Origin: Fidelibacterota bacterium
Lineage (GTDB): Bacteria; Fidelibacterota; Marinisomatia; Marinisomatales; Marinisomataceae
Assembly: GCA_965212055.1 (NCBI GenBank)
Contig: OZ243041.1
Location: 883,736 to 947,735 of the forward strand
Reading direction: 5' to 3'
Length of the DNA stretch: 64,000 nucleotides
Shown piece by piece: positions 6,703 through 30,290 of the stretch (its first letter is position 1; each line of letters starts with the position of its first letter). The notes beneath the pieces were generated by a model. The model worked only from the letters and a program-made list of their open reading frames with translations. It did not search any database and was not told where the DNA came from. The translations under genes were made by a program, and so were the position numbers.

Positions 6703-7263
6703 TTAATCTAAAATATCTTTTGCTAAAAGAACCTTAATAAAAGTTTTATACAAAATTATTATATTAAATCTAAAATTTCTGTTTTTAAGATAATAATAAT
6801 CATATTCAGTCTTTTCCTTTATAGATAACGAATCTCTACCATTTACTTGTGCCCAACCAGTAATACCAGGTTTTAAATGATTAATGTTATATTTGTCTCT
6901 TAATTTAATAAGATCATCTTGATTAAATAATGCAGGCCTTGGACCAATAAAATTAATATCCCCTAAAAAGATATTAATAAGTTGAGGTAATTCATCTATA
7001 CTATATTTTCTTAGAAAATTGCCAGAACGTAAAATTTGGTTATTTTTATTTTTCATTAAATGTGTGGCTAAATCTTTTGTATTTTTTTTCATAGTTCTAA
7101 ATTTAATAATATTAAAGATGGTCTTATCTTTACCTACTCTTTTCTGTTTAAAAAAAATAGGAAATCCATCATCAATAATAATAAGAATACTTACCAAAAT
7201 CAAAATAGGGAATAATACTACAATAAGTATTAATGAAGTAATTTTATTCAAAATATTTCCCAT
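6703..7263 (-). CDS. small monotopic phosphoglycosyl transferase (PglC/WbaP C-terminal family, initiating sugar transferase)
   Basis: 186 aa. One N-terminal hydrophobic helix, KQKRVGK, KFRTM, DELPQLINIFLGDINFIGPRP and PGITGWAQVNGR are bacterial sugar-transferase signatures. Confidence 0.88.
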   Translation of the reverse strand: MGNILNKITSLILIVVLFPILILVSILIIIDDGFPIFFKQKRVGKDKTIFNIIKFRTMKKNTKDLATHLMKNKNNQILRSGNFLRKYSIDELPQLINIFLGDINFIGPRPALFNQDDLIKLRDKYNINHLKPGITGWAQVNGRDSLSIKEKTEYDYYYLKNRNFRFNIIILYKTFIKVLLAKDILD

Positions 7264-7330: not shown

Positions 7331-8570
7331 GTGGAAAAATTACCTAAAAATATTTTAATTATATCTCCTCTTTATCATCCAGAAATAAATAGAGTAAATG
7401 ATTTAGTGGGTTATTTATTAAAAAAAAATCATAGAATAACCATTGTATGTCCAATACCTAATTATCCTGAAGGAAAATATTATAAAAATTATGGTATCTT
7501 TAAAAAAAGATACGAGAAATTTGATAATTTGACTATTGTAAGGATATTAGTACATCCAAGAAAAAATGGATCAAAAATAAATTTATTTCTCAATTATTTA
7601 TCATTTATAATCTTTAGCGTTATTCCTGCTATTATTTTATCCTTTAGAAAATTTGATTTAGTATTTGTTAATCAAGTATCTCCAATTACAATTGCAATGC
7701 CTGGTATTATTATAAAAAAAATTAGGCGGATACCTATGGTTATGTGGGTAACAGATTTATGGCCAGAAAGTGTTAAAGATGCAGGAAATCTGAAATCTAA
7801 TTTTATACCAAATTTACTTTTACCAATAGTAAAATATATTTATAGAAACTGTAATCAAATATTGGTGTCTTCAAGATCTTTTATTAACTCTATAAGTGAA
7901 AAAACAAAAAATAAAGATATAGTTTATATGCCTCAATGGGGTGAGACAACATTCACAGACAATAAATCCACAAGCTTTTACTAATGAATCAGTAGAAAAA
8001 ATAACAGATTTTAAAATAATGTTTGCTGGTAATATTGGTATGGCTCAAGATTTTAATTCTATTATTAATGCAATCAATAAAGTAAAAAATTATCCAATTC
8101 ATTTAGTTGTTTTGGGAGGAGGTAGAGGGAAAAAAGATGCAGTAAACAAAGTTAAAGAAATGGGTTTGGAATCTAAAATTTCCTTTTTGGGATCTTTTCC
8201 ATTAGAAACCATGCCTTATTTTTTTAACAAAGCAGATGCTTTACTAATTAGTCTTAAAAAAAGTGAGATATTCGCAAAAACAATTCCTGCTAAAACACAA
8301 TCATATATGGCTTTTGGTAAACCTATACTAATAAATGCTGATGGTGAAGTATCAAGGATTATAGAAGAATCTAAAAGTGGATTGGTTGCAAATTCAGGCA
8401 ATTATACTCTTTTGGCAAAAAACATGTTAAAATTGAGTCAATTACCTAAAAAAGATCTTGAAACGATGACTAATAATTGTAAAAAGTATTATGAAAAAAA
8501 TTTTAATAGAAAAAAAATTCTTAATAATTTCGAAGAAATAATACATAACATTATAGACAACAAGAAATAA
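7331..8570 (+). pseudogene. family 4 glycosyltransferase (WbuB/WcaI-like) split by a +1 frame change
   Basis: ORF 7331-7984 (GTG start) is a GT4 N-terminal domain ending ...VYMPQWGETTF. ORF 7941-8570 in the +1 frame continues with FKIMFAGNIGMAQDF and the GT-B C-terminal domain. The two overlap at 7941-7984, so one intact gene requires a 1-nt correction there. Confidence 0.75.
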
Positions 8571-9324: not shown

Positions 9325-10247
9325 TGAATTTAGATTTTTCAAAGATTAAAGTTTTATTAATTGGAGACTTTATGATAGATCACTATATCATTGGTACCTC
9401 CAATAGAATGTCTCCAGAAGCACCGGTTCCTGTAGTAATTCCAGAACAAGAATATTCAATACCAGGAGGAGCAGGAAATGTAGCTATGAATTTAAGTCTA
9501 ATGGGAGCAAATGTAACATGCGTAGGGTGTATTGGTGATGATGATTGGGGTAAAAAATTAATTTCAATATTAAAAAATGAAGGTATAAATATAGAAGCCA
9601 TAAATATAATTAATAATCACCCGACTACATTAAAACAAAGGATTTATTCAGATGGTAAACAAGTTGCGAGACTTGATACAGAAAAAATAATTAATTGGCA
9701 ACCTGATTCTGAAATGAAACACGATTATAATGATTATGATATTATAATATTATCAGATTATAATAAAGGAGTGCTAAATGAACCATGGTTTAGTATAAAT
9801 AATTTAGATAATGTAATAGTAGATCCTAAAAAAGATGTCTTTAGTCATTATAGCCAAGCAAATATTATTACACCAAATTTAAATGAACTTCAAAGAGCTT
9901 CTAAAATTGAGATTAATGATGACAAATCGCTTGTAAATGCTTGTAATGAATTAATTCAAGAATGCAGTTTTAACTATATAATTGCAAAGAAAGGTAATAA
10001 AGGAATGACAATTGTCGGTAAAAACAATTTTGTTAAGCACATAAAAGCTCATTCTGTTGAAAATCCAGATGTCACAGGAGCAGGAGATACTGTTATTGCT
10101 GCCTTATCTCTCGCATTTGCTAAAACAAAAGATATAAAAATTTCTACAACAATTGCTAATGCTGCAGCTGCTGTAGTAGTAGGAAAGCCTGGCACTGCTA
10201 CTGTTACTATTGATGAGATTAATAATTATATTTCTATAGATGAGTGA
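9324..10247 (+). CDS. PfkB-family sugar kinase, D-glycero-beta-D-manno-heptose-7-phosphate kinase-like (RfaE domain I only)
   Basis: 307 aa. KVLLIGDFMIDHY, PGGAGNVA and the C-terminal DVTGAGDTVIAA ribokinase-family motif. It sits directly upstream of gmhA. No fused adenylyltransferase domain. Confidence 0.7.
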   Translation: MNLDFSKIKVLLIGDFMIDHYIIGTSNRMSPEAPVPVVIPEQEYSIPGGAGNVAMNLSLMGANVTCVGCIGDDDWGKKLISILKNEGINIEAINIINNHPTTLKQRIYSDGKQVARLDTEKIINWQPDSEMKHDYNDYDIIILSDYNKGVLNEPWFSINNLDNVIVDPKKDVFSHYSQANIITPNLNELQRASKIEINDDKSLVNACNELIQECSFNYIIAKKGNKGMTIVGKNNFVKHIKAHSVENPDVTGAGDTVIAALSLAFAKTKDIKISTTIANAAAAVVVGKPGTATVTIDEINNYISIDE

Positions 10248-10800
10248 AAAATTAATAACTGAATCAATCGTACAGCATAGTACAGTGCTTGAGTCTTTAG
10301 ATCAAGATACTATCGGTAAAGCTGCACAACTTATTGTGGAATCAATACACAATAATAGCAAAATTTTTTGGTGTGGAAACGGGGGAAGCGCTTCTCAAGC
10401 AAATCATCTTTCTGCTGAGCTTGTAGGAGGTATGTATCAAGAAAAAACTAAACCATGTCAATCCATTTGTTTGAATGTTGATACAGCATTTATTACAGCT
10501 TGGTCTAATGATGATTCTTTTAATAATATTTTTGTTCGTCAACTAGAAGCACTAAGCAACAATGGAGATGTTTTAATTGTTTTGTCAACAAGTGGAAATT
10601 CTTTAAATATTGTCAATGCAACTAAATTTGCACAATCAAATGGTCTAACAGTTGTATCATTAACGGGTAATGGTGGTGGAGATGTAAAAAATTCTTCAGA
10701 TATCAACATCAATATTAATAGTGATAATACCCAACGTATTCAAGAAATGCATATCTTAGTAGGTCATATTATTTGCGAGATGGCTGAACAGTCACTATAA
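10240..10800 (+). CDS. gmhA: phosphoheptose isomerase (SIS domain)
   Basis: 186 aa. CGNGGSASQANHLSAEL, LSTSGNS and QEMHILVGHIICE match GmhA. Confidence 0.85.
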   Translation: MSEKLITESIVQHSTVLESLDQDTIGKAAQLIVESIHNNSKIFWCGNGGSASQANHLSAELVGGMYQEKTKPCQSICLNVDTAFITAWSNDDSFNNIFVRQLEALSNNGDVLIVLSTSGNSLNIVNATKFAQSNGLTVVSLTGNGGGDVKNSSDINININSDNTQRIQEMHILVGHIICEMAEQSL

Positions 10801-12063
10801 CTCCCAGTTTATTCCAATTCCTACTCTACTTTCTCCACTTTCGTTATTTGCAATAAAAATATTAAAAGCAGGAATTTCTTTTTTATTCCTACTGTCCATT
10901 GTTTTACCAAAAATAAGTTTGTATTTAACTATATCATTAATATTAATTCTTCTTGATGCTTTTATTTTATATTGATAACCAGAAAGAATTTTTCCACTAA
11001 TACCCATATGAAAAACTTCCGTAGGCTCAACTTCGAGATGATTAATAAATGAATTACCAAGAGTGTAATCTTTATAACCCCAACCCATGCTATAAATCCC
11101 ATGATTATAATATGCATCATTTACATATGGGGGATTCATATCTTGATGAGTTGTATCTAAATATTCAAATAAAATAGTAGTTTCTGGAATATAATTTTGC
11201 AATTCTATTCCCCATAATCCATCAATTTCGTTTCTAAATCTTAATCCACTAGTATCCTCAAAAAAATGTTGATAATATAGTTTTAGTATTTGATTATTAT
11301 TATTTTTTTGGAAAAACAATTCAGTCATACCTAAGTGATTTCCTAATGCATTTGGGTGAGCTCCTCCTTCATCAGGACCATCTTCAGATATAAAAACCTT
11401 TAAAAAATCTTTAAATGTATCTGGTTGATCTCCATCTATAACTGTACTCCCTCCCCACATTGCTTCGTGAACAAACCCAATACTAACTTGATAATTGTTT
11501 TTTCTGATATTCATATAAAGAAATTTTTCATGCAATAAAGGAGCTTTATTATAGGTATCATTTTTATCAAAAAATCCATGCGCGATTCCAAAATCAAAAT
11601 CAATTTTTTCAAGTTTTTTTATTTTTTGAGATGTTACTAAACCAATTTTTGGCATTGGTTTTGCATTATTGCTTATTAACATATGTCCAGAACTAAGTTC
11701 ATCGTTTAGATAATTACTGAAATCTCTGTAGTATCTTCCTACACGCAAAAATATCTTATCTGAAAAATTGTGTTTTATAAATGATTCGTTAAAATAAATG
11801 TTTTCTTCCTGTGCAAGAATATTAATTACATAAGTAGTTTTTAATGTTTCTAATTCCCAGTGACTTTGAAAATCAAAACTAGTAGGTGTTATTCCAAAAT
11901 TGTTTTTTTCTAGCCACCAAGAATCCAAAATGTCAGGATTTGATTGGATTTTAAGTTTAATTTCCTGTTCTTGTGTAAATAACAATGTGTTTGCTATAAA
12001 GGGAAGAATTACAAAAAGTTTTAAGAATTTATTGATTTTGATAATTTTTAACTTTTTTAACAT
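10795..12063 (-). CDS. putative secreted/outer-membrane beta-rich protein (possibly Wzi-like; function unknown)
   Basis: 422 aa. N-terminal signal-like hydrophobic stretch, aromatic/Gly/Asn-rich alternating pattern, ending GIGINWEL. The family was not recognised with confidence. Confidence 0.35.
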   Translation of the reverse strand: MLKKLKIIKINKFLKLFVILPFIANTLLFTQEQEIKLKIQSNPDILDSWWLEKNNFGITPTSFDFQSHWELETLKTTYVINILAQEENIYFNESFIKHNFSDKIFLRVGRYYRDFSNYLNDELSSGHMLISNNAKPMPKIGLVTSQKIKKLEKIDFDFGIAHGFFDKNDTYNKAPLLHEKFLYMNIRKNNYQVSIGFVHEAMWGGSTVIDGDQPDTFKDFLKVFISEDGPDEGGAHPNALGNHLGMTELFFQKNNNNQILKLYYQHFFEDTSGLRFRNEIDGLWGIELQNYIPETTILFEYLDTTHQDMNPPYVNDAYYNHGIYSMGWGYKDYTLGNSFINHLEVEPTEVFHMGISGKILSGYQYKIKASRRININDIVKYKLIFGKTMDSRNKKEIPAFNIFIANNESGESRVGIGINWEL

Positions 12064-13693
12064 AAAATTTCCAGTCCATTACTTCAATAGTTGCATGTTT
12101 TGAAATCTCAAATGACTGAAATTCTTGATTAGGAAATACTCTTTGTTCTAATCCATTAACAAGTAAATCAATTGGCATAACAAAATTTTCATTTACATTT
12201 TCCCATCTATAATAAAATTCAGAATCTGTTTGGTAATATTCTAAATGTGGTTGGTTTGGAGTATAAAAATACTGTTCAGAGAAATAAGAATAATCATTAC
12301 CTGTTTTTTCTTTTACTTTTGCAAAGAAATCTTCTGTATTGACATGGCTTCTTGCATTTTCAGTCATAAATTCTTTAAGAATTTCAAACCAAATAGTATC
12401 ATTATTGATTGCACTTCTTAAAGTATGCATTATCCAAGCGCCTTTCATGTATGTATCTCCGCTTAATGCCCAATGATTTTGATCTTCATTGCCAACAATT
12501 GGAATCTTATTGGTAATTCTTCCTTTTATACTTTTTAAGTAATCAACACTTATTGGGTAGCTATCAAATTTATCTTCAAAATAAATTGCTTCAGAATAGA
12601 CTTGTAATCCTTCATGAATCCAGATATGTGTAGGATCTGAAGCAGTTACGCTATTTCCAAACCATTCATGCCCTGTTTCATGAATAATTAATGGATCTAT
12701 AACACCATACATAGCCCAACTACTACTTCTAACACCATTATAAATACTAAAACCATTTCCATAGGTTACAGCTGATTGATGTTCCATCCCTAAATATGGA
12801 GCTTCTACTAATTTATATCCATCTTCCCACCATTGATAGTCGCCAAAATATTTCTCATAGAAACGAATAACTTCTTTTGCTTGTTGGAAATAGTTTTTTG
12901 CAACATCTTGATTGTAGTCTAGGACATAATGGTTAATATTATAAATAGTGGAATCTTTAATAAAAGTATCTTGAACAGCAACATAATGTCCAATTTGAAC
13001 TGATATGTTATAATTATTAATTGGATTATTTACGAACCATTCATATGTCGTTTTATCTCCATTTTGTATAGTATTTCTCAATTGGCCATTTGCTACACAC
13101 ATTAAGTCTGATGGAACTGTAAAAGCCATTTTAACACTATCTGGTTCTTCGGTGATATGATCTTTATTTGGCCACCAAATTCGTGCTCCTTCGCCTTCAC
13201 AAGAAACAGCAACCCAATCTCTTCCATCTTTATCCTTTGACCATGTAAACCCTCCTGCCCAAGGGGGATTGATAGCTCCTTCAGGAACGCCTTCATAGTA
13301 CACAGTGAAATCAAATAAAGTATTATTAAGAATTGTATTTGGAAAAACAACTAATACTGCATCTTCTTCACGACTATATTCTAATTCATTATTTTCATAA
13401 GTAATTTTTTTAATATCTAAATCTTTTGTTAAATCAACCTGTAAAACATCTATATCACTTAAGCTTTTTGCTTTTATTGTTACAAATCCATCCAAAGATT
13501 GGTTCTCAATATCAAAATCAATATTGATATCATAGTATGTAACATCGTATGAAGCACGATGCTCATTTAAAAACCCCATAAGGTGGTTATTTCTACTTAA
13601 TGGAGGTATTTCATCTCCACCATGTGGTCTAGGATTGCCACAACTAACAATTAAAAAACATAAAAATAAAATATTAATCAATTTTTTTTTCAT
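12029..13693 (-). CDS. M1-family zinc metallopeptidase (aminopeptidase N-like) lipoprotein
   Basis: Gluzincin motif HETGHEWFGN plus downstream WIHEGLQVYSE. The start is taken at MKKKLINILFLCFLIVSC (lipobox) rather than the upstream ATG at 13777. Confidence 0.8.
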   Translation of the reverse strand: MKKKLINILFLCFLIVSCGNPRPHGGDEIPPLSRNNHLMGFLNEHRASYDVTYYDINIDFDIENQSLDGFVTIKAKSLSDIDVLQVDLTKDLDIKKITYENNELEYSREEDAVLVVFPNTILNNTLFDFTVYYEGVPEGAINPPWAGGFTWSKDKDGRDWVAVSCEGEGARIWWPNKDHITEEPDSVKMAFTVPSDLMCVANGQLRNTIQNGDKTTYEWFVNNPINNYNISVQIGHYVAVQDTFIKDSTIYNINHYVLDYNQDVAKNYFQQAKEVIRFYEKYFGDYQWWEDGYKLVEAPYLGMEHQSAVTYGNGFSIYNGVRSSSWAMYGVIDPLIIHETGHEWFGNSVTASDPTHIWIHEGLQVYSEAIYFEDKFDSYPISVDYLKSIKGRITNKIPIVGNEDQNHWALSGDTYMKGAWIMHTLRSAINNDTIWFEILKEFMTENARSHVNTEDFFAKVKEKTGNDYSYFSEQYFYTPNQPHLEYYQTDSEFYYRWENVNENFVMPIDLLVNGLEQRVFPNQEFQSFEISKHATIEVMDWKFYVKKVKNYQNQ

Positions 13694-13892
13694 AATAGGT
13701 TGTTGATTGAAACATGTTTTTTGCAAAAATAATGAAATACAATAGAAAACAGAACAAAATCCATAATACAATGGCAAAAGCTTCCTTAATTAATGGAGAA
13801 GTCAATAAGAGAAATAGGATATAGATAATTGCTATATAAATAATCCATTTTATCCAATTAGGCTGACTCCATAGTTTAAATAATAAATTCAT
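13674..13892 (-). CDS. possible small two-helix membrane protein
   Basis: 72-aa ORF with two hydrophobic stretches, between the flippase fusion and the peptidase. No recognisable family. It could be spurious in AT-rich DNA. Confidence 0.2.
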   Translation of the reverse strand: MNLLFKLWSQPNWIKWIIYIAIIYILFLLLTSPLIKEAFAIVLWILFCFLLYFIIFAKNMFQSTTYYEKKID

Positions 13893-13894
13893 TA

Positions 13895-16546
13895 TTATAA
13901 GTTACTCTTATCTATATTAACAACTAAATCACTTGCAATACAAGACCAATCGTAATCTTTTGCTATCTTACTTGATTGTTTTCCCATTTGTTTAATTAGA
14001 TCTTTATTATCAATCAAATTTTGTATAACACTTGTAAGTTCTCTATCGTTATTTCTTTCAAAGATAACACCATTAACCTGATCTTGTATACAATCTTTAG
14101 AACCAACATTATTAGAAACAATAACAGGTAATCCAGATGCCATAGCTTCTAAAACTACTAACCCAAATGATTCATGTATAGAAGGAAGAACAAAAAGTGA
14201 TGCTTGAGAATAATTTTGTAGTGGAGAACCAGATTCAACTAATACAGAAATACCTTTCTCCATTAATTTATCTTTATATTCATTAAATATATCTTCAAAA
14301 TATTGTGTTATATGACCATTAAATATAAGATTGATTTTATCAGAGGAGTTTATATTAAGCATTGCTTTGAGTAAAAGATGTACGCCTTTTTCCGGATTGA
14401 CATTCCCTACAAATAAAATATTAAACTCTTTATTATTTTTTCTCTTATCTAAACTATCATATTTTTGGAAATCTACACCTAGTGCGCAATTAATAAGTTT
14501 TTCTTTTTTTATATTATTAACTAAATAAGATTTTTCAACTAACGATGAAATACACCAAATTTTGTCTACTATTTTAATCTCTGCTAATTGTCTTTGTATT
14601 CTTTCAGCAAGTATGGGTTCATTTTTCAAACCTATTCTTTTATATTCTTTTTCTAAATAGTCTTTTTGTACATTTGGATGCATCCATTGAGAATGTAGAA
14701 TTGCTTTTCCACCACGTTTTTTCACTTCTTCAAATGAGTATAAAGACATTCCATTGCGTCCAATAATAATTGTATCACTATTAACTTCTATTATATTTTG
14801 TTGAATAAGATTTGTTAATTTTTTATCATAATAGATAAATTCGTCTAATAGTTGTTGATTAACACTGGTAGAAAATACTATTCTTTTAAATTTATTATAA
14901 CCTCTTATAGCAAATTCAAAAATCTTATTGGTACCAATATTATGATATTTACAAATTGATATATCAACTTCTCCCCTGCCAACCCATACAATATTATAAC
15001 CTAATTTTTTAAGATTTTTAACAAGCATAATGTCAGTACTTTTAGTTGCACCCAACAGATTAACATTATGTGAACCTGAATAAATGATAAAATTCATTTT
15101 CCTCTGATTTGAAGAATTGTTGGATAAAATATTAAGATTTGAAGAAGACTCAGAATTTTGATATTCATTTAAAATAATTTGAATATCTTTCAAATAAGTT
15201 ATATACAACATTATGAATAATACGATGAGCAATAATAGCTTATGAATCAAAGATAGTGTAAATAAATTGTTGGCTCCCCATAATAACAGACCCGTGAAGA
15301 AGAGTAGAAATAATATCTTTGTAAAATATGATAGATAACCTTTATGAATCAACTTCTTAACATAAACCTGGTAAGTGTAGAAAACTGATATATTCCCTAC
15401 TATAAAAACTGCAGCTGCAGCACCTGTAGTACCATATAAATCTGTTAAGAAATATAGCAAAGGTATTAATGCTAATAAATTTATTATTGCTACTTCCATA
15501 TCAACTTTTGTGTAACCATATGTATGTAATAATGGAGCAACATTGCTTGATACAGCTTTAATGAGTACAACCACAATAAATATTTGTAGTAAAAGTGATG
15601 ATGGGAGCCATTTTTCACCATATACAAAGAGTATAATTTCTTGAGAAAATAATAAAATTATAAATACTGGAATAAAATAAATAATTGCTGTTATTACCGT
15701 AATCATATCAAATAATTTAATTTGATCTTTAAGATTATCAAGCTTAGCAAGAGTTGGAAAAAGAACTTTATTAATGGCAGCTCGAATAAAAAATAAATAA
15801 TGACTGATTTGGAATGCCATCCAGTAAAATCCTAACGATTTTTCATCTATCAACAAATCCACAAGGTAATAATCAATATTGGTAGATATAAAAACAAGAA
15901 TTGTACTAATCAATAATGGATATCCAAAAACCATGGATTCTCTAAATATTTTATAATCTATACGGAGCTTGGGTCTATATGGCAAAATAAACCAGATTAA
16001 TACTGATTCTACAAGTGAAATAGTTACTTTCCACCACACTAAACTCCATATACCATAATTGTTATATGCCAATGTAATTCCAACAATGCCACCAACGACA
16101 TGAGATACCAACATTGGCATATTTGCTTTAACAAATGATAATTCTTTTTCAAAAAGTGCTTTTGGTTTCACAAGCGGGTTATACAACAATACTATGCAAA
16201 AGATTTGGATATATTCTGTAAGGTGAGATTTATCAATCCATGCTAAAATTGTTGGTAACAAGAAAAGAGAAAATAATATTAACAACAACCCCCATATTAA
16301 TTCAACGGTAAAAATTGTATCTAATATTTTATAAGGATTCTTTTTTTCTTTAATAAGAAATTTATCTCCATGAAGACTCCCAAAACTATTAAGAAACATC
16401 GCAACTAGGCTAATAAAAGCAAAAACACCAAATTCCGATGGCTCCAAAATTCTAGCAAGAGTAACTTGGACAGTAAAAAGTGTAATAACCTGCAATATGG
16501 TTATTACACTTACTGTGATTCCTCCAGAAATCAGTCTTTTTAACAC
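13895..16546 (-). CDS. fusion protein: Wzx-type polysaccharide flippase (MOP superfamily) + family 4 glycosyltransferase
   Basis: 883 aa in a single uninterrupted frame. Residues 1 to about 470 are polytopic (12 or more hydrophobic helices, typical Wzx). A Ser/Asn linker follows. Residues 484-883 (from the Met at 15097) are a GT-B domain with EKGVHLLLKAM and PSIHESFGLVVLEAMASGLPVIVSN. Confidence 0.75.
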   Translation of the reverse strand: MLKRLISGGITVSVITILQVITLFTVQVTLARILEPSEFGVFAFISLVAMFLNSFGSLHGDKFLIKEKKNPYKILDTIFTVELIWGLLLILFSLFLLPTILAWIDKSHLTEYIQIFCIVLLYNPLVKPKALFEKELSFVKANMPMLVSHVVGGIVGITLAYNNYGIWSLVWWKVTISLVESVLIWFILPYRPKLRIDYKIFRESMVFGYPLLISTILVFISTNIDYYLVDLLIDEKSLGFYWMAFQISHYLFFIRAAINKVLFPTLAKLDNLKDQIKLFDMITVITAIIYFIPVFIILLFSQEIILFVYGEKWLPSSLLLQIFIVVVLIKAVSSNVAPLLHTYGYTKVDMEVAIINLLALIPLLYFLTDLYGTTGAAAAVFIVGNISVFYTYQVYVKKLIHKGYLSYFTKILFLLFFTGLLLWGANNLFTLSLIHKLLLLIVLFIMLYITYLKDIQIILNEYQNSESSSNLNILSNNSSNQRKMNFIIYSGSHNVNLLGATKSTDIMLVKNLKKLGYNIVWVGRGEVDISICKYHNIGTNKIFEFAIRGYNKFKRIVFSTSVNQQLLDEFIYYDKKLTNLIQQNIIEVNSDTIIIGRNGMSLYSFEEVKKRGGKAILHSQWMHPNVQKDYLEKEYKRIGLKNEPILAERIQRQLAEIKIVDKIWCISSLVEKSYLVNNIKKEKLINCALGVDFQKYDSLDKRKNNKEFNILFVGNVNPEKGVHLLLKAMLNINSSDKINLIFNGHITQYFEDIFNEYKDKLMEKGISVLVESGSPLQNYSQASLFVLPSIHESFGLVVLEAMASGLPVIVSNNVGSKDCIQDQVNGVIFERNNDRELTSVIQNLIDNKDLIKQMGKQSSKIAKDYDWSCIASDLVVNIDKSNL

Positions 16547-16606: not shown

Positions 16607-17320
16607 TTATAACACAAAATAATATAATTTTTTATAATAATCTAAAGCTTCATCATAAATAGAATGGTACTCTTTTGGTACATTATTAGATCTATTTTCA
16701 AATTTTTCAAATTTGGTAGTATTAATAATATTGTTATACCAATGTTTCCACCAAATACCATCAGTAGAATATGGACCTTTCTTCCAATTAAGCATTTTTT
16801 TATCAAACTTAATATTCAAATGATTGCACCAATGATTTAAGATACTTTCAGGATTGTTTAATAAAGTAGAAACATCAATAACTAAAATATTTTTTTTGAA
16901 TTTTTGCAAATATTTAATTAATTCATATTGCTGAGGATAACCAAGTTCACTGATATGATTTAATTTGTTTTTTTTAATATAAGAGCTAATCACATCTTTT
17001 GGGTGTCTTATCAAAAATGAATTATGGAAATCTTTTATCCATTCAATATTTTCTAAGTTGATTAAATGGTGGGCCATATGTTTTTGATACCATATATTTT
17101 TTGATTGAGGAATTTCTTTAGTAATAGCATTGACTACTGAATCATATGAATTTGGATAATAATTAATAATTTCTTCATGCATTGGATGTTTTAGTTTTTT
17201 TTCTTTTAAATAATATGCATAAAAAGGCTCATCAGTCACAAAGGTATCGTCTCTTGATGACCAAGAACGCATTAATGCAGTAGAAATATTCCTAGGACCT
17301 GACCAACAAGCAATTTTCAT
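16607..17320 (-). CDS. sulfotransferase-like P-loop protein
   Basis: 237 aa. N-terminal WSGPRNISTALMR resembles the 5'-phosphosulfate-binding loop, and LIRHPKDVISSY resembles the R-x-P-x-D-x3-S 3'-phosphate-binding motif of PAPS sulfotransferases. An APS kinase lies in the same gene run. Confidence 0.5.
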   Translation of the reverse strand: MKIACWSGPRNISTALMRSWSSRDDTFVTDEPFYAYYLKEKKLKHPMHEEIINYYPNSYDSVVNAITKEIPQSKNIWYQKHMAHHLINLENIEWIKDFHNSFLIRHPKDVISSYIKKNKLNHISELGYPQQYELIKYLQKFKKNILVIDVSTLLNNPESILNHWCNHLNIKFDKKMLNWKKGPYSTDGIWWKHWYNNIINTTKFEKFENRSNNVPKEYHSIYDEALDYYKKLYYFVL

Positions 17321-18231
17321 AATTTAGATTTTATATAATTTTCAATATCTTGAAGATATAATGTTCTTATCTTATTTGTGATGGAGTCCTTATTTGTTGA
17401 TTCTAAAGATTTATCTTCTAAGATTGAAACTGGTACAATGCCTCCAAACGTTCCAGTAACAAATGCTTCTTGACAATCTTCTATATCTTTAAAAATAAAA
17501 TTTTTTTTAGAAATCGGAATATTATTTATTTTGCATAATTCTATTGTTTTTGATCGAGTAATTCCATTGAGACAATATTTCCCTTTCGAAGTAATAATTT
17601 CATTATTCTTAATGAAAAAAAGGTTAGTTGAATTACATGTGCTAATAAAACCATGCATATCATTCATAATTCCTTCATCATAGCCAAGCTTATTTGCTTC
17701 TATACTCGCTAAAATACAATTTAATTTACTTAATGTATTATACTGTGGATTCAGTATTTCATTATTTGGTCTAATATTTTTGACTCTTCCAATTTTAATA
17801 CCATTCTTATAGGTACTAGAATCTGCTTTCTTATATTCAGGAATAATAACAAAGTTTATTGGACCCACATTTGCATTAGGATTTTGATAAGGAGTAATTT
17901 TATTCCCACGAGAAACTACTAAACGAATATGTACATCATCTTTCATATTATTTTTTGTTAACGTTTTATTGATTTCATTTATGATATACTCTTTTTCAAA
18001 ACCAATATGGAGTGAAATCCCTTTTGCGCTTTCATAGAGACGATCTAGGTGCTCTTCAATATGTATCAAAACAGATTGATGAAATCTAATTCCTTCCCAG
18101 ATTCCATCTCCAAGTAAAAAACCACTATCAAAAACTGATATTTTTGCTTCGTTTCTTTTGAAAAATTCTCCATTAATGTTTATTAAGACAGCTTCATTTT
18201 TTGGATTTACTATGAAAGAATGTGTACTCAT
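17317..18231 (-). CDS. class IV (fold type IV) PLP aminotransferase (BCAT / D-amino-acid aminotransferase / ADC lyase family)
   Basis: The start is taken at MSTHSF (18231) because the upstream ATG lies inside the tRNA. EAKISVFDSGFLLGDGIWEGIRF and a C-terminal EAFVTGTFGGIVPV-type block are typical. Confidence 0.8.
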   Translation of the reverse strand: MSTHSFIVNPKNEAVLININGEFFKRNEAKISVFDSGFLLGDGIWEGIRFHQSVLIHIEEHLDRLYESAKGISLHIGFEKEYIINEINKTLTKNNMKDDVHIRLVVSRGNKITPYQNPNANVGPINFVIIPEYKKADSSTYKNGIKIGRVKNIRPNNEILNPQYNTLSKLNCILASIEANKLGYDEGIMNDMHGFISTCNSTNLFFIKNNEIITSKGKYCLNGITRSKTIELCKINNIPISKKNFIFKDIEDCQEAFVTGTFGGIVPVSILEDKSLESTNKDSITNKIRTLYLQDIENYIKSKL

Positions 18232-18234
18232 GAG

Positions 18235-18306
18235 TGGGCCCACAGGGATTTGAACCCCGAACCTGCGGATTATGAGTCCGTTGCTCTACCATTGAGCTAT
18301 GGGCCC
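18235..18306 (-). tRNA. tRNA with CAU anticodon (elongator Met or lysidine-modified Ile2; not initiator)
   Basis: The reverse complement GGGCCCAUAGCUCAAUGGUAGAGCAACGGACUCAUAAUCCGCAGGUUCGGGGUUCAAAUCCCUGUGGGCCCA folds by hand. Elements are a 7-bp acceptor stem, D stem GCUC/GAGC, anticodon loop CUCAUAA, and T arm CGGGG-UUCAAAU-CCCUG. A G1-C72 pair argues against initiator. CCA is not encoded. Confidence 0.92.
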
Positions 18307-18317
18307 TTATCTAAAAA

Positions 18318-18659
18318 TTATTTTCTAAACAATTTTTTTCTTATTTTTGTAGCAGAAATTTTTCCTATACTATCTGGTGGAATATGTTCAATGATATCAT
18401 AACCTACCCCACGCCCATAATTTACAGATTCAATATCAGGTATAATAATAACTTTGATTCTATTACTTTTAACCAAATCTTGAAGTTTATTTTCAATATT
18501 GTTTTTTACATCTTCAGGATCATAAGGATTTTTATCATTTGTACTTACTTCTCTTATACAAATAAGAACATTTTTCCCTTCATTTAGTCGTTGATCAATT
18601 AACCAACGATGTCCATCATGCCACGGTTGCCATCTTCCTATAAACATTGAGTATTTCAT
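18318..18659 (-). CDS. minimal HxGH-type nucleotidylyltransferase (cytidylyl/adenylyltransferase superfamily)
   Basis: 113 aa carrying both superfamily motifs, GRWQPWHDGH and ISATKIRKK. The start overlaps the 3' end of the APS kinase gene. Substrate unknown. Confidence 0.6.
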   Translation of the reverse strand: MKYSMFIGRWQPWHDGHRWLIDQRLNEGKNVLICIREVSTNDKNPYDPEDVKNNIENKLQDLVKSNRIKVIIIPDIESVNYGRGVGYDIIEHIPPDSIGKISATKIRKKLFRK

Positions 18660-19077
18660 TTGTACATTCCTCTATATCTAATTTGCCTGTATCAATTGAT
18701 AAATGTTTTTCTAAAGGGATTTCATAGTCTTTAGCAAAAAAATTTTCTCTTCCTCTTATTTCTGTAGTATGCAAATAAACTTCCAGAAAAGGAAATTCAC
18801 TCTTTAATTCATTTCTAAGAAATCTATATGGGGCAACAATAGATACTACACAAAGATATCCCTTACTGCTTAAAAAACGAATAATTGATATCGCAGTAGA
18901 AATATTTTTAATTCTCCCTTCTTTAGAATAATCTTTATTTCTATTAATATTTCTTAAATCATCACCATCTAAATTAATTATTTTAAGATATTCATCATCT
19001 TGTTTTAAAGATTTAATAATCGAATTAGCTAGGGTTGTTTTCCCGCTACCCGGCTGACCTGTAAGCCAAATAATCAT
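18616..19077 (-). CDS. cysC: adenylylsulfate (APS) kinase, short form
   Basis: 153 aa. IIWLTGQPGSGKTTLA P-loop, LDGDDLRN and SKEGRIKNI...VVSIVAPYRFLR match CysC blocks. Confidence 0.82.
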   Translation of the reverse strand: MIIWLTGQPGSGKTTLANSIIKSLKQDDEYLKIINLDGDDLRNINRNKDYSKEGRIKNISTAISIIRFLSSKGYLCVVSIVAPYRFLRNELKSEFPFLEVYLHTTEIRGRENFFAKDYEIPLEKHLSIDTGKLDIEECTNEILNVYRKMATVA

Positions 19078-19089
19078 AATTTTATCTTT

Positions 19090-20115
19090 TCAGATAAAAA
19101 GTTGATCCCGTTTATTATAAGCTTCAAAGACAAGGATGAGTGCAAATAAAATTATAAATAAAGCAATAATGCTTTCTAAAAATCCTCTGCCAGCTTTATA
19201 TGAAATAATATGAGGCGAATCCAAAATAAATACTGTAGAAGTACTATTTTTTTCATCAATCTTTGCAATTTCTAGTTGATCTGAAAGAGTTATATATAAT
19301 TGATTATAGAGCGATACTTCTTGTTCTATTCTCTTCTTTTGAACAATCAAATTTGGAGAATTGGTTAAGTTTTTATTGCTTTCAAGAAAGAAGATTAGTT
19401 CATCTTGAGCATTCTCTAAATTTTCTTTTATCTGCGATAGACGACCAACAACAAAATCTTTCTTTTCTTTTGCTTTAATATTAGTAATCTCACTAGAATA
19501 TTTCACAATGGAATCAAAGATATTTTCTAAAATATCTTGAGATAATTCAGGATTTTCTCTTACTGTCACACTAATAGCATTTAAAGAAGATTGTTTATCT
19601 TCTAAATGACCTATACTGTCTTTAAGAATTTCTTTAGCAAAAAGCAACTTTTTCTCTTCAATAGATAAATTTTCACTCATATTAATCTTTCTATTGATTT
19701 TCTTAATAGTAGCAATTGGATTAATTGAAAAAACATTATCATAATTACTCCCCCAATAGTCAACTAAGGTTTTTTTATCTCCTTTGATATTGTATTCTTG
19801 CTCTACAACATGTTGTAATAATTTTTCAGAAGCAAGATATTCAGATACAGTAAAACCTAAATAAAGATTCTTTTCGAATCTGTCTCCTGCAAAACTTCTT
19901 ATAAAACTTAAAGCAGAAGATTGGTTTGATTCATTATAATTGGTATAGAATGATACTTCTGAAGAGTAAGATGGAGTCTTAAGAAAAAAGTAATACAACA
20001 TAAAAATAACGATTACAGATAAAAGAATTTTTAAATATTGTCTAAAAATATTAAATATAAAATAGAACACATTTTTTAAATTAATATACTCATTTTCTAG
20101 GATTGGTCTATTCAA
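19090..20115 (-). CDS. polysaccharide chain-length determinant (Wzz/PCP family, no kinase domain)
   Basis: 341 aa. One TM helix near each terminus around a coiled-coil periplasmic region. It sits directly downstream of the Wza-like gene. Confidence 0.7.
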   Translation of the reverse strand: MNRPILENEYINLKNVFYFIFNIFRQYLKILLSVIVIFMLYYFFLKTPSYSSEVSFYTNYNESNQSSALSFIRSFAGDRFEKNLYLGFTVSEYLASEKLLQHVVEQEYNIKGDKKTLVDYWGSNYDNVFSINPIATIKKINRKINMSENLSIEEKKLLFAKEILKDSIGHLEDKQSSLNAISVTVRENPELSQDILENIFDSIVKYSSEITNIKAKEKKDFVVGRLSQIKENLENAQDELIFFLESNKNLTNSPNLIVQKKRIEQEVSLYNQLYITLSDQLEIAKIDEKNSTSTVFILDSPHIISYKAGRGFLESIIALFIILFALILVFEAYNKRDQLFI

Positions 20116-20125
20116 TGTTTAGTCC

Positions 20126-22027
20126 TTAATTTGAATTATTATCAATAATAAAAATAATAGTTGCCAAGTTAGTAAGAATAGAAACTAAGTCCGATGTAAA
20201 GGCTGTAGGATTAAATTCCTGCGGATCAGGATCTGCTGGAACAAAAATTGTATCCCCTCCATTAACGCGTTTCCAACGTCCTCTTGCAATTTGATCAATT
20301 TCACCGTTTGATTTTTTAATATAAACTTTATTCTTTAATGAATTTTCTTGATATCCACCAGCAAGCATAATATAGTCTAATACTGTTAAATTTGATTTAT
20401 GTGCTACCAAACCAGGGTTATAAACATTGCCTTGAACATTCACCATATCTTCATATGGAAGAATAGTGATAATTGAATTTGCAGTAAGAACAAAATCTGT
20501 ATTTACATTACCAACATTTTCTCGTACTGTAGTAACCATGCCACTTGCGTTAGTTTCAGTAAATTCTTCATAAATTACTATAGCATCTTGATTGGCAAGT
20601 GGAGTAAATCCTTCTGCAAGATTAATTGCATCTCCTACAGTCATTCTAGATGTTAAAGGAAAACTGCCTCTTTTCTGTACTTCTCCATCAATTGTTACTT
20701 TAAAACTATTATTATATCTATAGTCTTCATATACAAAAATTTTGTCTTCAGCTTTTAATTCAAATTTATCTGATTCTTCGTAAGAAACTTTAAACTCTTT
20801 TCCATAAAACTGATTCTTATCTTTTCGTAAAATTAAAATTTCATTCTCACGAATGGATTTTCTATATACAGGATCATTGAATCCTCCTGCTACATTTAAA
20901 ACAGTTTTAAGATTCGATGCAGAAGGATATAATCCAGGAAACTTAACTCTACCAAAAATCTCTACTGTTGTTAATACATCTCCAATAGATGTAATAATAA
21001 CAGAATCTCCATTATGTAAATTAGTGTTTGAAAATTCTTTAAAGTTAATGGTCTTGCTTGTTTGTGCATTGTCGTCTGAAGTACGTTCTTCCATTGGAAT
21101 CACAACATACAATAAAGCTGAAGAACTAGCATTTGCCGTAAAACCACCAGTATATTTGATAAGATCTGCTAATGATTCATCATTCACTAATTCAAAAAAA
21201 CCAATATTATAAACTTCTCCTAGTATTTCGACACGATTAATAATTGTGGGAATATGAATAACATCTCCATCTAAAATTTTTATAGATGAAAAATCATTTT
21301 TCCCATCTGCAAAAAAAGAATAAAAGTCAACAGTAGCAATTATTTCATTATTTCGAATTAATTGTACCATTCTTAATGAACCTTCTTTTTTTACTCCTCC
21401 AGCTTGAACAATCGCTGAAAATATATCAGAAAACGGATGAATAAGATTAATACCTGGTATTTCAATTTGTCCAGAAAAATAAACATTGATAGATTTTAAT
21501 TTTCCTAATTCTAACATTAATTCTGTTGGATTATCTTTATCTTGTAAGGTTGAATAAATGCGTGACAATTCCTGAACTAAAATTAATTCAGCTTCTTTCA
21601 TATTTTTGTTAGAAAGATTGATAAAACCAACATTTTCATAATAAATTAATCCTTCTTTATTAATAACAAATTTTTCTCTTGAATTTGTTTCTCCCCATAG
21701 AGACAATATTACCTCATCACCTGGGCCTAATTTGAAATCAGGTGGTGTAGGAACATTATCAAAAAAATTAATATCTCTCTTAAAATAATTATAGCCAAAA
21801 TAACTATCAGCAGGTGCAGATGTAGAAGGCCCAATTGTAACGGAACTTGGGATTTCACTCTCTGAACTAATATCTGTTGTCCCAACTTCAGAAGGGATTG
21901 CTCCAGCTTTTAATTGTGATTTAATCAAATCTAATTCATCATTACTCAATTTATTCAAATCACCTAATGAAACCTGTCCAAAGACGATATTAATAAAACA
22001 TAAAAATATGGTATATTCTCTCTTCAT
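20126..22027 (-). CDS. polysaccharide export outer-membrane protein (Wza/OPX family with multiple SLBB repeats)
   Basis: 633 aa. Signal peptide, Poly_export motif FKLGPGDEVILSLWGE, repeated beta-grasp-like V..G.V..PG segments, and a C-terminal hydrophobic helix. Confidence 0.8.
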   Translation of the reverse strand: MKREYTIFLCFINIVFGQVSLGDLNKLSNDELDLIKSQLKAGAIPSEVGTTDISSESEIPSSVTIGPSTSAPADSYFGYNYFKRDINFFDNVPTPPDFKLGPGDEVILSLWGETNSREKFVINKEGLIYYENVGFINLSNKNMKEAELILVQELSRIYSTLQDKDNPTELMLELGKLKSINVYFSGQIEIPGINLIHPFSDIFSAIVQAGGVKKEGSLRMVQLIRNNEIIATVDFYSFFADGKNDFSSIKILDGDVIHIPTIINRVEILGEVYNIGFFELVNDESLADLIKYTGGFTANASSSALLYVVIPMEERTSDDNAQTSKTINFKEFSNTNLHNGDSVIITSIGDVLTTVEIFGRVKFPGLYPSASNLKTVLNVAGGFNDPVYRKSIRENEILILRKDKNQFYGKEFKVSYEESDKFELKAEDKIFVYEDYRYNNSFKVTIDGEVQKRGSFPLTSRMTVGDAINLAEGFTPLANQDAIVIYEEFTETNASGMVTTVRENVGNVNTDFVLTANSIITILPYEDMVNVQGNVYNPGLVAHKSNLTVLDYIMLAGGYQENSLKNKVYIKKSNGEIDQIARGRWKRVNGGDTIFVPADPDPQEFNPTAFTSDLVSILTNLATIIFIIDNNSN

Positions 22028-25217: not shown

Positions 25218-26444
25218 TTAAAATATATCCATAAAAGACGGAGTAGAACCACCATTTCGTACCCAGTCATAAAAAGCTAGATAATCTTTGCCTAATACAT
25301 CCCAAGAAAAATAATCTTTAATATATGTTCTTCCAAGTTGACCCATATTTTTTAGATCATTTTTATTCAAACTATTTGCTGCTAATATTGCTGAGTATAT
25401 ATCATCTTGATTTAAACTAACAACCCATCCATAATTATTCTTTTTTACAACATGCCAAGGTGTTTCTTCAGATACAATGACTGGTAAACCATAAGACATA
25501 GCTTCTGCAATCACCAATCCAAAATTTTCTGATTGAGAAGGGATAATAAATACATCATTACTAAGATATTTTTCTTGTTTTTTTAATCCTGATACTTTAT
25601 CAGTAAAAGATATATTTTTTAAACCAAATTTTTTGATTAAATCTTGTAAAAATTTATAGTAACTAATGTCTTCATAATAACCACATATTTCTAATGTACA
25701 ATTTTTGTTTTCTAATTCAATTCTAGACCATGTTTTAATAAGAAGATCAAGGCCTTTGATTGGATGTATTCTTCCTAAATATAAAAATTTAGTTTTTTCT
25801 CTAGTAAAATTTGTCTTTTTCTCTTTGGGAATATCAATACCTTCTGGTATAACAGCAATTGGTTGTTTATAACCTAAAGACCTAATTTCATCTTTTTCTT
25901 TGAGAGACGTAGCATGAAATGCATCACAATTTGATAACATTTTATTTTGATTAGAAAATATATTAAAAAGAATTTTTTTATACCTTGATACACTTAAAGC
26001 CTCTTTTGCAAAACTTCCTTTTGGAGAATTAACTATTTTTATATTCTTTCTTTTCTTTACTGATAAAGAATAGATATGTGGCATTCTCCATAACCCATGA
26101 CTATGAATTATATCACCATCAGTTGTTAATTTTTTTAAACCTGATTTAAATTTTTGTGAAGATAAAATAGATTTTAGCATAAAATCAATTCTATATTCAT
26201 GAACTTTAAATGAGGGCTTAAATACCAAATTACTTTTTCCTGCTGTATGGAGATGAGTATCAATATTGTTTGATACAGCTTCACATAAAGCTGGCACAGC
26301 ATAAGAGTGACCACTCAGTTGTCTTTTAACAATAAATGGAGCAATGTGATGTACAGAAAATGAATCTATCATGTTCAATTTATGGTTGGGGTGGAAATCC
26401 GTTTCCATATAAAATAATTTTCGATATAAAATCAATGTTTGCAT
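25218..26444 (-). CDS. family 4 glycosyltransferase (GT-B)
   Basis: PSQSENFGLVIAEAMSYGLPVIVSE (E-x7-E region). The start is uncertain. Internal Met codons at 26408 or 26372 would reduce or remove the 65-nt overlap with the upstream gene. Confidence 0.8.
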   Translation of the reverse strand: MQTLILYRKLFYMETDFHPNHKLNMIDSFSVHHIAPFIVKRQLSGHSYAVPALCEAVSNNIDTHLHTAGKSNLVFKPSFKVHEYRIDFMLKSILSSQKFKSGLKKLTTDGDIIHSHGLWRMPHIYSLSVKKRKNIKIVNSPKGSFAKEALSVSRYKKILFNIFSNQNKMLSNCDAFHATSLKEKDEIRSLGYKQPIAVIPEGIDIPKEKKTNFTREKTKFLYLGRIHPIKGLDLLIKTWSRIELENKNCTLEICGYYEDISYYKFLQDLIKKFGLKNISFTDKVSGLKKQEKYLSNDVFIIPSQSENFGLVIAEAMSYGLPVIVSEETPWHVVKKNNYGWVVSLNQDDIYSAILAANSLNKNDLKNMGQLGRTYIKDYFSWDVLGKDYLAFYDWVRNGGSTPSFMDIF

Positions 26445-27387
26445 ATAAAAAATAAAGACTAGTGATAAGAACGCCCAAGTTTAAACCTGCACGATAAGGC
26501 AAACAATAATACAAGCAAAATATATAACCAATCATATTCATTCTATCTTCTCCAACAAAATATAGAGCTATAAATAGCGGTAAAAAATAAATTAGAGTCT
26601 CTAATCTGTCTTTTGTATAATATAAAGCTATAAGAAGAAATATTGTCATCCTTAAAAAATCAAATATACTTCGATCGCCACCATATGCTGTTATTTTAAA
26701 AAAAAGGTAAGGTAGTCCAGAAATTTGAGTGGAGTTTATAGCAAAGAATACAAACACTATCATTGGTAACACAAATAATAATGACCGTTTAAATTGTAAT
26801 TTAAATAATAAAGGCTTGACTTCATTAATGAATAACTGAAGTGCTCTACCTAAACATAAGATTAGTATCTGCAAATGAGAAAAAATAGCTAAACCAAAGA
26901 AAAAGAAAGAAAGAACATATTTTTTTCTAAAAAGAAAAAATAACAAGAAAAAGATAAAACCAATTTTTAACCTCTCTCCTGTAAAAAATAATACATATAA
27001 ATAAAAATTTGTAAGAATAAAAAAAGATGTTACTAGAAAATTAACTTTAAGATTATCAAAAACTTTTATTAAAAGCCCAGCAAGAAATGTATTACACATA
27101 GACAGAAAAAAGATTCTATCTATTCCTAGATTGCTTGCTACCCAAACAAAAATAAAATGAACAAATTCTACTGTGGTAATAATATAATTATAGAGTTGAT
27201 ATGCCCTAGCAATATCAAGGTCAGCTACTCCGTTATATATTGTTCTATATCCATTGTTATCTCCCCCTACATATAAATTCCCTAGAATCAATGAAATAAT
27301 AAACACAAAAAAAAGCAGTGTTATTCTCAAAAAAGTATTTTTATTAAAAGATGGTAGATTTAAAAAAATTTTAGTGTTTATCATCAT
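26380..27387 (-). CDS. polytopic membrane protein, EpsG/Wzy-like repeat-unit polymerase candidate
   Basis: 335 aa with about 10 hydrophobic helices and no soluble domain. It is the only polymerase-like membrane protein in a locus that has a Wzx flippase. The family was not rigorously recognised. Confidence 0.45.
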   Translation of the reverse strand: MMINTKIFLNLPSFNKNTFLRITLLFFVFIISLILGNLYVGGDNNGYRTIYNGVADLDIARAYQLYNYIITTVEFVHFIFVWVASNLGIDRIFFLSMCNTFLAGLLIKVFDNLKVNFLVTSFFILTNFYLYVLFFTGERLKIGFIFFLLFFLFRKKYVLSFFFFGLAIFSHLQILILCLGRALQLFINEVKPLLFKLQFKRSLLFVLPMIVFVFFAINSTQISGLPYLFFKITAYGGDRSIFDFLRMTIFLLIALYYTKDRLETLIYFLPLFIALYFVGEDRMNMIGYIFCLYYCLPYRAGLNLGVLITSLYFLYANIDFISKIILYGNGFPPQP

Positions 27388-28604: not shown

Positions 28605-28605
28605 A

Positions 28606-29385: not shown

Positions 29386-29525
29386 AATTACTATTTGATA
29401 TTGTTTTTTATTGATTGAAGTATTTTCTAAATAGTAATTAAATAATTCTTTTCTATACTGTGAAAGTTCAAACTTTTTAGAAGAAAAAGGATTAAAGATT
29501 AAAGTACTATCTCCTGATTTTTTAA

Positions 29526-30284: not shown

Positions 30285-30290
30285 CTTACA

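Follow-up and report, generated by a model that had tools for sequence, protein, structure and literature searches.

Flippases of the Wzx/PST type (PRK10459; WzxE, 9g9n; MurJ, 6nc6) are known as stand-alone membrane proteins, and the termini of MurJ are cytoplasmic. Among the glycosyltransferases (GTs) of family GT4, Campylobacter PglA (8dqd/8dvz) glycosylates an acceptor linked to undecaprenyl pyrophosphate (Und-PP). Glycosyl transfer and translocation are brought together in the synthases BcsA, hyaluronan synthase, and PgaC, all of them processive GT2 enzymes in which a GT is combined with a channel for translocation and which move polymers, as well as in the Pel system, in which PelF is a GT4 enzyme and PelG a PST/MOP-like membrane protein. 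In mycobacterial MurJ/MviN, a MOP flippase is followed by a linker and a C-terminal intracellular pseudokinase domain after the 14th transmembrane (TM) helix (PMC6180346). Here we describe a single gene in a 64-kb window (the whole stretch of DNA that was analysed, 64,000 nucleotides of contig OZ243041.1, assembly GCA_965212055.1, positions 883,736 to 947,735) whose predicted 883-residue product combines a Wzx-type flippase with a GT4 enzyme, and which probably represents a genuine, lineage-specific, and reversible fusion of a Wzx flippase and its cognate GT4 in a Wzx/Wzy-dependent capsule or exopolysaccharide (EPS) locus of an uncultured marine member of the Flavobacteriaceae.

The window protein shares with stand-alone Wzx/PST proteins the family (PF13440/PF01943), the fold, and the position as the only flippase in a polysaccharide locus, but it carries a catalytic GT domain of 400 residues after TM14. 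Its flippase half has 14 helices, as has MurJ. The chains of WzxE, at about 410 residues, are shorter, and their alignment spans about 400 columns. The GT half and PglA have in common the GT-B fold, the EX7E motif, and the Glycos_transf_1 C-terminal domain; however, the two are about 15% identical, the N-terminal Rossmann domain of the window GT is too divergent for the Pfam Glyco_transf_4 families, and the window GT is attached to a flippase. MurJ/MviN is the nearest precedent for a cytoplasmic domain appended after TM14, although the appended domain is regulatory in that protein (a pseudokinase that binds FhaA), whereas in the window it would be, judging from the gene, an enzyme of the same glycan pathway. 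The synthases and the PelF/PelG pair resemble the fusion in concept, since glycosyl transfer is joined to translocation in each, but the window gene appears to combine a GT4 of the non-processive type with a repeat-unit flippase in a Wzy-dependent locus. We found no description of a Wzx-GT fusion in full-text literature searches, in which matches to 'fused' concerned cloning or unrelated contexts, and structure and profile searches of the PDB returned no chain that holds both halves.

The gene and its parts are located as follows (aa, amino acids; pLDDT, predicted local distance difference test; K+R, lysine plus arginine).

13895..16546, minus strand: full fused open reading frame (ORF), 883 aa plus stop codon (Pfam/NCBIfam domains; eight fused orthologue clusters).
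15191..16546, minus strand: MOP/Wzx flippase domain, residues 1-452, 14 TM helices, predicted N-in/C-in (PF13440, AlphaFold2, Foldseek, K+R bias).
15098..15190, minus strand: cytoplasmic helix after TM14 and Ser/Asn-rich linker, residues 453-483 (orthologue variability, low pLDDT).
15104-15151, minus strand: low-confidence core of the linker, residues 466-481, pLDDT <50 (full-length AlphaFold2 model).
15134..15139, minus strand: codons N470-L471 (AAT CTT), site of the 1-nt difference from the split sister lineage (junction alignment, translations).
15095..15097, minus strand: Met484 codon, aligned with the start codon that distant relatives use for a stand-alone GT4 and not conserved among fused orthologues.
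13898..15097, minus strand: GT4 (GT-B, retaining-type) glycosyltransferase domain, residues 484-883 (PF00534, pLDDT, Foldseek, PglA profile match).
14147..14173, minus strand: EX7E motif, E792-SFGLVVL-E800 (read from the sequence; alignment of relatives).

The ORF starts with GTG (16544-16546) and is free of internal stops. Three Pfam families were matched above their gathering scores, namely Polysacc_synt_3 (PF13440; residues 30-316, E 2.7e-51, 175 bits against a cut-off of 23), Polysacc_synt (PF01943; residues 12-269, 63 bits against 28.2), and Glycos_transf_1 (PF00534; residues 701-859, E 4.8e-31, 108 bits against 26.4), and the GT half also matched PF13692 (86.4 bits). Residues 4-450 aligned to the NCBIfam 'MOP flippase family protein', and the flippase half matched Wzx-type families (WzxC-like PRK10459, O-glycosylation Wzx, and TuaB), with scores that stayed far below the equivalog level for the characterised Wzx proteins WzxC, TuaB, and O-glycosylation Wzx (129.5 vs. 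273; 92 vs. 720; 80 vs. 580). By sequence, the flippase half is a member of the family and the orthologue of no named flippase. Many GT4 families aligned at about residues 550-880, all of them far under their cut-offs, and neither half reached the NCBIfam equivalog cut-off of any characterised protein. The MOP/Wzx and GT4 families are large, and the two domains are ordinary representatives of them. The Glyco_transf_4 N-terminal domain was not recognised by sequence (no Pfam match to PF13439 or PF13579 at E 0.01 or better), but the N-terminal Rossmann domain is present structurally (Foldseek) despite the sequence divergence. In the alignment of GT relatives, E800 of the motif E792-x7-E800 (HESFGLVVLEAM) is invariant and position 792 is E or D. 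Linker residues 463-483 (QNSESSSNLNILSNNSSNQRK) include Ser or Asn at 13 of 21 positions, and among the orthologues both the length of the aligned stretch (26-33 residues) and its sequence vary. These data bear out most of what the initial annotation had read from the letters of the DNA, namely one ORF that joins a Wzx/MOP flippase to a complete GT4 (the strand, which it left unstated, is minus), the motifs EKGVHLLL and ESFGLVVLEAMASGLPVIVSN, a Ser/Asn-rich linker, and an in-frame Met at 15097 that opens the GT part (residue 484, translation MNFIIYSGS). Its assignment of 12-plus helices to a MOP-type half was right as to the type, and the count has to be set at 14 instead of 12.

Hydropathy and both AlphaFold2 models agree on 14 hydrophobic helices between residues 10 and 452. 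Modelled alone, the flippase half reached a pLDDT of 92.4 and a predicted template modelling score (pTM) of 0.91, and in Foldseek it superposed over its full length on the 14-TM lipid II flippase MurJ (6nc6, TM score 0.81) and matched the lipid III flippase WzxE (9g9n, TMt 0.79), with MATE transporters ranking lower in the list. The predicted topology corresponds to the MOP fold, i.e., two 6-TM bundles with or without TM13-14 and cytoplasmic termini. The cytoplasmic loops of the window protein contain 27 K+R and the periplasmic loops four, a bias that is kept in all eight fused orthologues (24-29 inside vs. 3-4 outside). As this positive-inside bias and the MurJ-like fold agree, the C-terminus of the 14-TM flippase, and hence the GT domain, is predicted to be cytoplasmic. 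This is the placement expected in the initial annotation; the helix count is even, and a periplasmic position was not predicted. In the full-length model, helix 452-476 extends on from TM14, the linker appears as a flexible tether between the domains, and the GT half, mostly at pLDDT >90, shows alternating beta and alpha elements over residues 485-880. The latter aligned with full-length GT-B/GT4 structures (PglA, BshA, GlgM, and MshA; TMt 0.72-0.79 in Foldseek) and has a complete GT-B fold, and the best PDB match of the family profile was PglA (8dvz, E 1e-13).

A search of 5.8 billion protein clusters detected eight clusters at 59-100% identity, all of which are fused, 878-886 aa long, and of the same two-part Pfam architecture. 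Such full-length orthologues exclude a chance joining. Intact fused genes are present in the independent assemblies L001, L015-L018, and L027-L029, including a Flavobacteriaceae metagenome-assembled genome (MAG; L001) with a copy that is 99% identical and three metagenome contigs (L027-L029), and an orthologue with 66% identity was assembled intact in at least four different samples with synteny kept. The shared gene order comprises Wza, a 341-aa protein, APS kinase, a small nucleotidyltransferase-like protein, a class IV aminotransferase, a sulfotransferase, the fusion, a small ORF, an M1 peptidase, and Wzi. Ratios of non-synonymous to synonymous substitution rates (dN/dS) of 0.15-0.39 in both halves indicate purifying selection, and the synonymous distance (dS) between fused subclades exceeds 1. 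Within the clade, the fused form (eight clusters, about 130 member sequences) outnumbers the split form (two clusters).

In other organisms, direct homologues of both halves are separate genes, as the initial annotation had anticipated for standard loci. A Bacteriovoracaceae MAG (L002) has separate wzx and GT4 genes with 44% and 48% identity to the window halves, whose stop and start codons overlap (GTGA, 4 nt) with an AGGAG Shine-Dalgarno sequence seven bases upstream, an arrangement that, as read from the sequence, is classic translational coupling. In the same genome, homologous coding sequence precedes the first ATG of wzx (9986-10051) with no canonical start there, and an ATT at 9992 behind GGAGG is likely to be the start codon. 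In the marine contigs L108-L111, wzx is followed by GT4 after a 5-nt gap (GT 52-53% identical; P0237, a close homologue, is annotated as Flavobacteriales), and in L113, from a marine metagenome, the two genes overlap by 8 nt (GT 43% identical). An Epsilonproteobacteria MAG (L025/L026) has a GT with 67% identity, encoded apart from wzx with a methyltransferase gene in the middle, as is also seen in L107. The stand-alone GTs of distant relatives begin exactly at the position of Met484 in the window (MRFVIYSGS in L002 vs. MNFIIYSGS). The nearest relatives of the GT half (85-86% identity), annotated as stand-alone proteins of 414 aa, belong to a split sister lineage (L019-L024) in which a wzx of 466-470 aa overlaps GT4 by 8 nt and the synteny is that of the fused clade. 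All these unfused pairs (L002; L108-L111 and L113; L019-L024) share with the fusion the same two subfamilies (43-86% identity), the gene order, and the kind of locus, and differ from it in having two polypeptides, a 5-nt gap or a 4- or 8-nt overlap, and no additional 12-14 linker residues.

The sister lineage is represented by six assemblies from two sets of run accessions with two diverged alleles, and the junction reveals how it differs from the window: the window has AAAT-CTTAAT and the split sister AAATGTCTAAT, with one extra nucleotide, by which Wzx gains a TAA stop and the GT an overlapping ATG. The N-terminus acquired by the sister GT (MSNISSNNYSNQKKMNF) is homologous to the window linker (LNILSNNSSNQRKMNF). 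Bootstrapped neighbour-joining trees of the two halves are congruent, and in both of them the split L019/L020 are sister to the window at 100% bootstrap and nested among fused subclades. Because of this nesting, the most parsimonious history suggested by the sequences is that adjacent separate genes were fused once in a marine Flavobacteriaceae lineage and separated once by a 1-nt indel. When the two split alleles are compared, dN/dS values of 0.16 (Wzx) and 0.25 (GT) indicate that both split products remain functional.

We also examined how widely such fusions occur, using an exhaustive HMMER profile search of 1.84 billion representatives, of which the best 150 of 260,826 hits were listed. 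Among these best 150 hits, end-to-end matches to the profile were confined to the fused clade; next, with similar scores, came stand-alone proteins of two kinds, namely GT4 enzymes of about 400 aa, which align to profile positions 485-882, and Wzx proteins of about 465 aa, which align to positions 1-463. Further Wzx-GT fusions of weak relatedness may exist beyond these hits. Multi-stretch hits of 740-1170 aa were considered as further fusions and discarded, as the nine scanned (740-832 aa) were GT4-GT4 tandems. A metagenome scan with the GT alignment, which relied on generic GT4 motifs and contained close relatives at four of its 80 loci, showed a flippase fusion in none of the unrelated GT4 loci. 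One protein call, P0240 (357 aa, on a 1.5-kb contig), is 100% identical to half of the window GT domain and yet has a CoaE (PF01121) domain; it is probably a chimeric assembly. A second fusion was found in the reverse order: P0011 and P0338 (862-863 aa, 88% identical to each other) consist of an N-terminal GT4 and a C-terminal Polysacc_synt_3 flippase and sit in another EPS locus, beside a pyruvyl transferase. They share with the window fusion a GT4 and a Polysacc_synt_3 flippase in one polypeptide and the EPS locus, but their halves are of different subfamilies (26% identity to the flippase half of the window). This is an independent fusion event, and GT4 and Wzx have been fused at least twice. 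Since both termini of Wzx are cytoplasmic, either order is topologically permitted.

The genomic surroundings of the fused gene were then considered, and the genes most relevant to the pathway are listed below.

6703..7263, minus strand: polyprenyl-phosphate glycosylphosphotransferase, the initiating enzyme (TIGR03025, E 4.5e-61).
10795-12063: Wzi.
13674..13892, minus strand: small hydrophobic ORF of 72 aa that begins two bases past the fusion (found likewise behind the fusion of L015 and the split genes of L019/L020).
16607..17320, minus strand: sulfotransferase (PF19798; Sulfotransfer_5), upstream neighbour kept in the fused clade.
17317-18243, minus strand: class IV aminotransferase.
18318-18659, minus strand: nucleotidyltransferase-like protein, 113 aa.
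18616-19077, minus strand: APS kinase.
19090-20115, minus strand: 341-aa protein with polysaccharide co-polymerase (PCP)-like topology, beside Wza.
20126..22027, minus strand: Wza-type outer-membrane polysaccharide exporter (OPX; Poly_export and SLBB).
26380..27387, minus strand: candidate Wzy polymerase with at least seven hydrophobic segments and a weak, sub-threshold EpsG match.

The initiating glycosylphosphotransferase, Wzy, PCP, and OPX of a Wzx/Wzy pathway are thus all represented, the Wzy and PCP assignments resting on topology or weak matches, and the locus also encodes a PglF-like dehydratase, FnlA/B/C-like genes with an adjacent GT4, and a GT2, with at least three GTs besides the fused one. 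No second Wzx homologue was detected in the 64-kb window, where the fusion is the sole flippase. By its gene content, the locus is a Wzx/Wzy-dependent capsule/EPS pathway, and in such a locus one expects an Und-PP-linked repeat unit as the substrate of the flippase half, with the GT half working on this unit before it is flipped.

Based on these results, the following scheme can be proposed. The ancestral state would have been a co-inherited pair, wzx and then the GT gene; several bacterial groups share this pair, whose members are usually neighbours and in many cases overlap at the stop and start codons. The stop between them was lost in one Flavobacteriaceae clade, and the C-terminal tail of Wzx together with about 12-14 new residues became a variable tether of low model confidence, which is predicted to hold the GT-B domain on the cytoplasmic side of the membrane, within reach of nucleotide sugars and of the Und-PP-linked repeat unit. 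There, at the membrane surface, the GT would extend the lipid-linked repeat unit by an alpha-linked sugar, and the unit would then be flipped by the same chain or by a neighbouring copy of it. The tether would fix a 1:1 stoichiometry and the membrane co-localisation of a pair that was already cooperating. The advantage was presumably modest. The state is reversible, the sister lineage having returned to two overlapping genes, both functional, through the 1-nt linker indel. The long-lived fused state (dS >1), the congruent trees, and the recurrent overlap and fusion of the two genes argue, at the level of sequence, for a real functional partnership rather than mere operon membership.

Several observations weigh against this scheme or limit it. 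The full-length AlphaFold2 model has a pTM of only 0.52, with residues 466-481 at pLDDT <50, and no confident packing or docking between the domains. Tight coupling is not universal, as a methyltransferase gene separates wzx and GT4 in L025 and L107. L025/L107 group within the fused clade in the GT tree, though weakly (49-56% support), and there may have been more fusion or fission events than the two in the history given above. Moreover, another GT4 gene of the window (7331-8570, plus strand) is frameshifted near 7974-7978 into ORFs 7331-7984 and 7941-8570, while its intact orthologue in L015 (19683-20921, 412 aa) is 96% and 91% identical to the window in the two frames. Either the gene is truly split or a pseudogene, or the window carries an indel error at this point. 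The latter might be taken to mean that the fused gene, too, is a product of assembly or sequencing error, or a decaying pseudogene. We give this almost no credence, since the same continuous ORF recurs in many independent assemblies and diverged orthologues, which excludes an artefact or a stop lost by sequencing error (a concern raised in the initial annotation), and since both halves are under purifying selection with all catalytic and fold features intact. More weight belongs to the view that the stop was lost by a neutral accident between adjacent, translationally coupled genes of compatible topology, harmless and reflecting nothing beyond a shared pathway. The fused state is indeed easily reversed, the linker is unconstrained and as rich in Ser and Asn as expected for unconstrained sequence in a genome of 30% GC, and the architecture is rare in the census. 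Nevertheless, it has persisted to 59% identity and across subclades separated by dS >1, fused forms outnumber split ones, and the Wzx/GT4 pairing is retained while the remaining locus changes, and we therefore regard a neutral origin as a real possibility that is on the whole improbable.

The opposite view, put forward in the initial annotation, is that the GT is docked at the cytoplasmic mouth of the flippase and adds the last sugar, so that only complete units are exported and the fusion enforces this checkpoint. The pair is co-inherited across several bacterial groups with congruent trees, adjacency or overlap of the genes recurs in relatives, the two have been fused twice independently in opposite orders, and contact between a terminal GT and a flippase is an open possibility in the literature, where one study mentions, for its terminal galactosyltransferase, that contact with the flippase "cannot be excluded" (PMC7589315). 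However, the two proteins can do without a covalent link, as is evident from the secondary fission, which leaves both halves under selection, and from the loci in which a methyltransferase gene intervenes; the linker varies and is modelled with low confidence, the model lacks confident docking, and with at least three other GTs in the locus nothing marks the window GT as last-acting. The idea of a completeness checkpoint is weakened accordingly by the fission and by the model, and we consider obligate coupling of this kind quite doubtful. A related proposal is that the last-acting cytoplasmic GT docks directly and specifically on its flippase and hands repeat units straight to export. It draws on the persistent pairing seen in the congruent trees, the overlapping stop and start codons, and the two independent fusions of opposite order, and we hold it tentatively, as unlikely at present. 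It was also suggested initially that the GT is additionally made on its own from the internal Met484, which might even be its main source. This codon aligns exactly with the start of the stand-alone homologue in L002 and is preceded by GAGGAAA in the window. It is not kept, however: the other seven fused orthologue clusters have I, Y, R, or H at this position, the split allele L020 has I, and the split sister lineage initiates at a different ATG, 14 codons upstream of this position. To our knowledge, Bacteroidota generally do not rely on Shine-Dalgarno initiation. An internal start as a conserved feature was thus rejected, two products are very unlikely, and Met484 is best taken, from the sequence comparison, either for what is left of the ancestral GT start or for a chance match to it. 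Finally, the gene might encode a Pel-like synthase, in which a PelF-like GT4 polymerase is joined to a PelG-like exporter that moves the growing polymer. PelF and PelG do belong to these families, and a GT and a translocating domain in one chain recall the synthases; but the locus has a full Wzx/Wzy set (initiating glycosylphosphotransferase, Wzy candidate, PCP-like protein, Wza, and Wzi), there is no Wzx in the window apart from the fusion, and the flippase half of the latter matches Wzx-type families. The Pfam scan gave no PelG family at E 0.01 or better, and neither PelF nor PelG was among the best 25 of 43 NCBIfam matches of the fused protein. On locus content and family matches this reading was rejected as highly improbable.

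A lineage-specific, reversible fusion of cognate partners, which we prefer, does not reveal a new kind of machinery. It is of interest as a conserved natural fusion that provides Rosetta-stone evidence for a functional, and possibly physical, GT-flippase partnership, to which the unfused pair, the secondary fission, and the independent reverse-order fusion add, and it bears on how Wzx flippases obtain or select completed lipid-linked repeat units and on how GTs associate with them. Fused, overlapping, and separated versions of the same two proteins also constitute a ready-made experimental system. If direct docking were true, the fused protein would be a natural single-chain complex for the hand-off from GT to flippase and an ideal structure target for a step of the Wzx/Wzy pathway that has never been visualised. 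In addition, single-base indels in low-complexity linkers of AT-rich genomes can easily switch the architecture, which should be borne in mind in annotation.

Several features of the locus deserve mention in their own right. The sulfation cassette (16607-19077, minus strand) lies within the capsule locus and is kept in L015-L018, and its gene content suggests a sulfated polysaccharide. With one hydrophobic segment near either terminus (19-41 and 308-335), the 341-aa protein has the topology of a polysaccharide co-polymerase; it lacks a kinase domain and matches no Pfam or NCBIfam family. The small ORF downstream of the fusion, which has no family match, follows fused and split versions alike (L015 12664-12858; L019 about 2856-3045; L020 about 2867-3056; 64-72 aa, MNLLFKLWxQPNWIKW...), is uncalled as a gene in L019 and L020, and may be part of the unit of the fusion. 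In relatives, a gene of about 565 aa with a GINT1_N domain is inserted between the small ORF and the M1 peptidase (L015 12845-14545; L019 3041-4735); the window is without it, and the small ORF is followed directly by the M1 peptidase (12029-13777).

Farther from the fusion, a cassette of CofD-like, HAD hydrolase, IspD/NTP-transferase-like, and Phosphodiest-family proteins is conserved between the window (27384-31556, minus strand) and L108 (460-4565). By analogy, it resembles the CofC/CofD logic of phospho-acid activation and transfer, and a phospho-substituent may be added to the glycan. A soluble protein of about 361-381 aa without family match is encoded in the window (32454-33599, minus strand), L025 (9206-10291), L113 (6537-7625), and L114 (13-1098); the window and L025 copies are 31% identical, and those of L113 and L114 were paired by size and position only. 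Several loci combine it with this GT4 and a Phosphodiest-family gene, and in most of them Wzx and often a methyltransferase are present too, while L114 has no adjacent Wzx, which suggests a wider conserved module around the Wzx/GT4 pair. Lastly, a 281-aa fragment of a UDP-glucose/GDP-mannose dehydrogenase (34548-35393, plus strand), with a partial N-terminal and a central domain and without the C-terminal domain, lies on the opposite strand within the minus-strand operon and is possibly a gene remnant.

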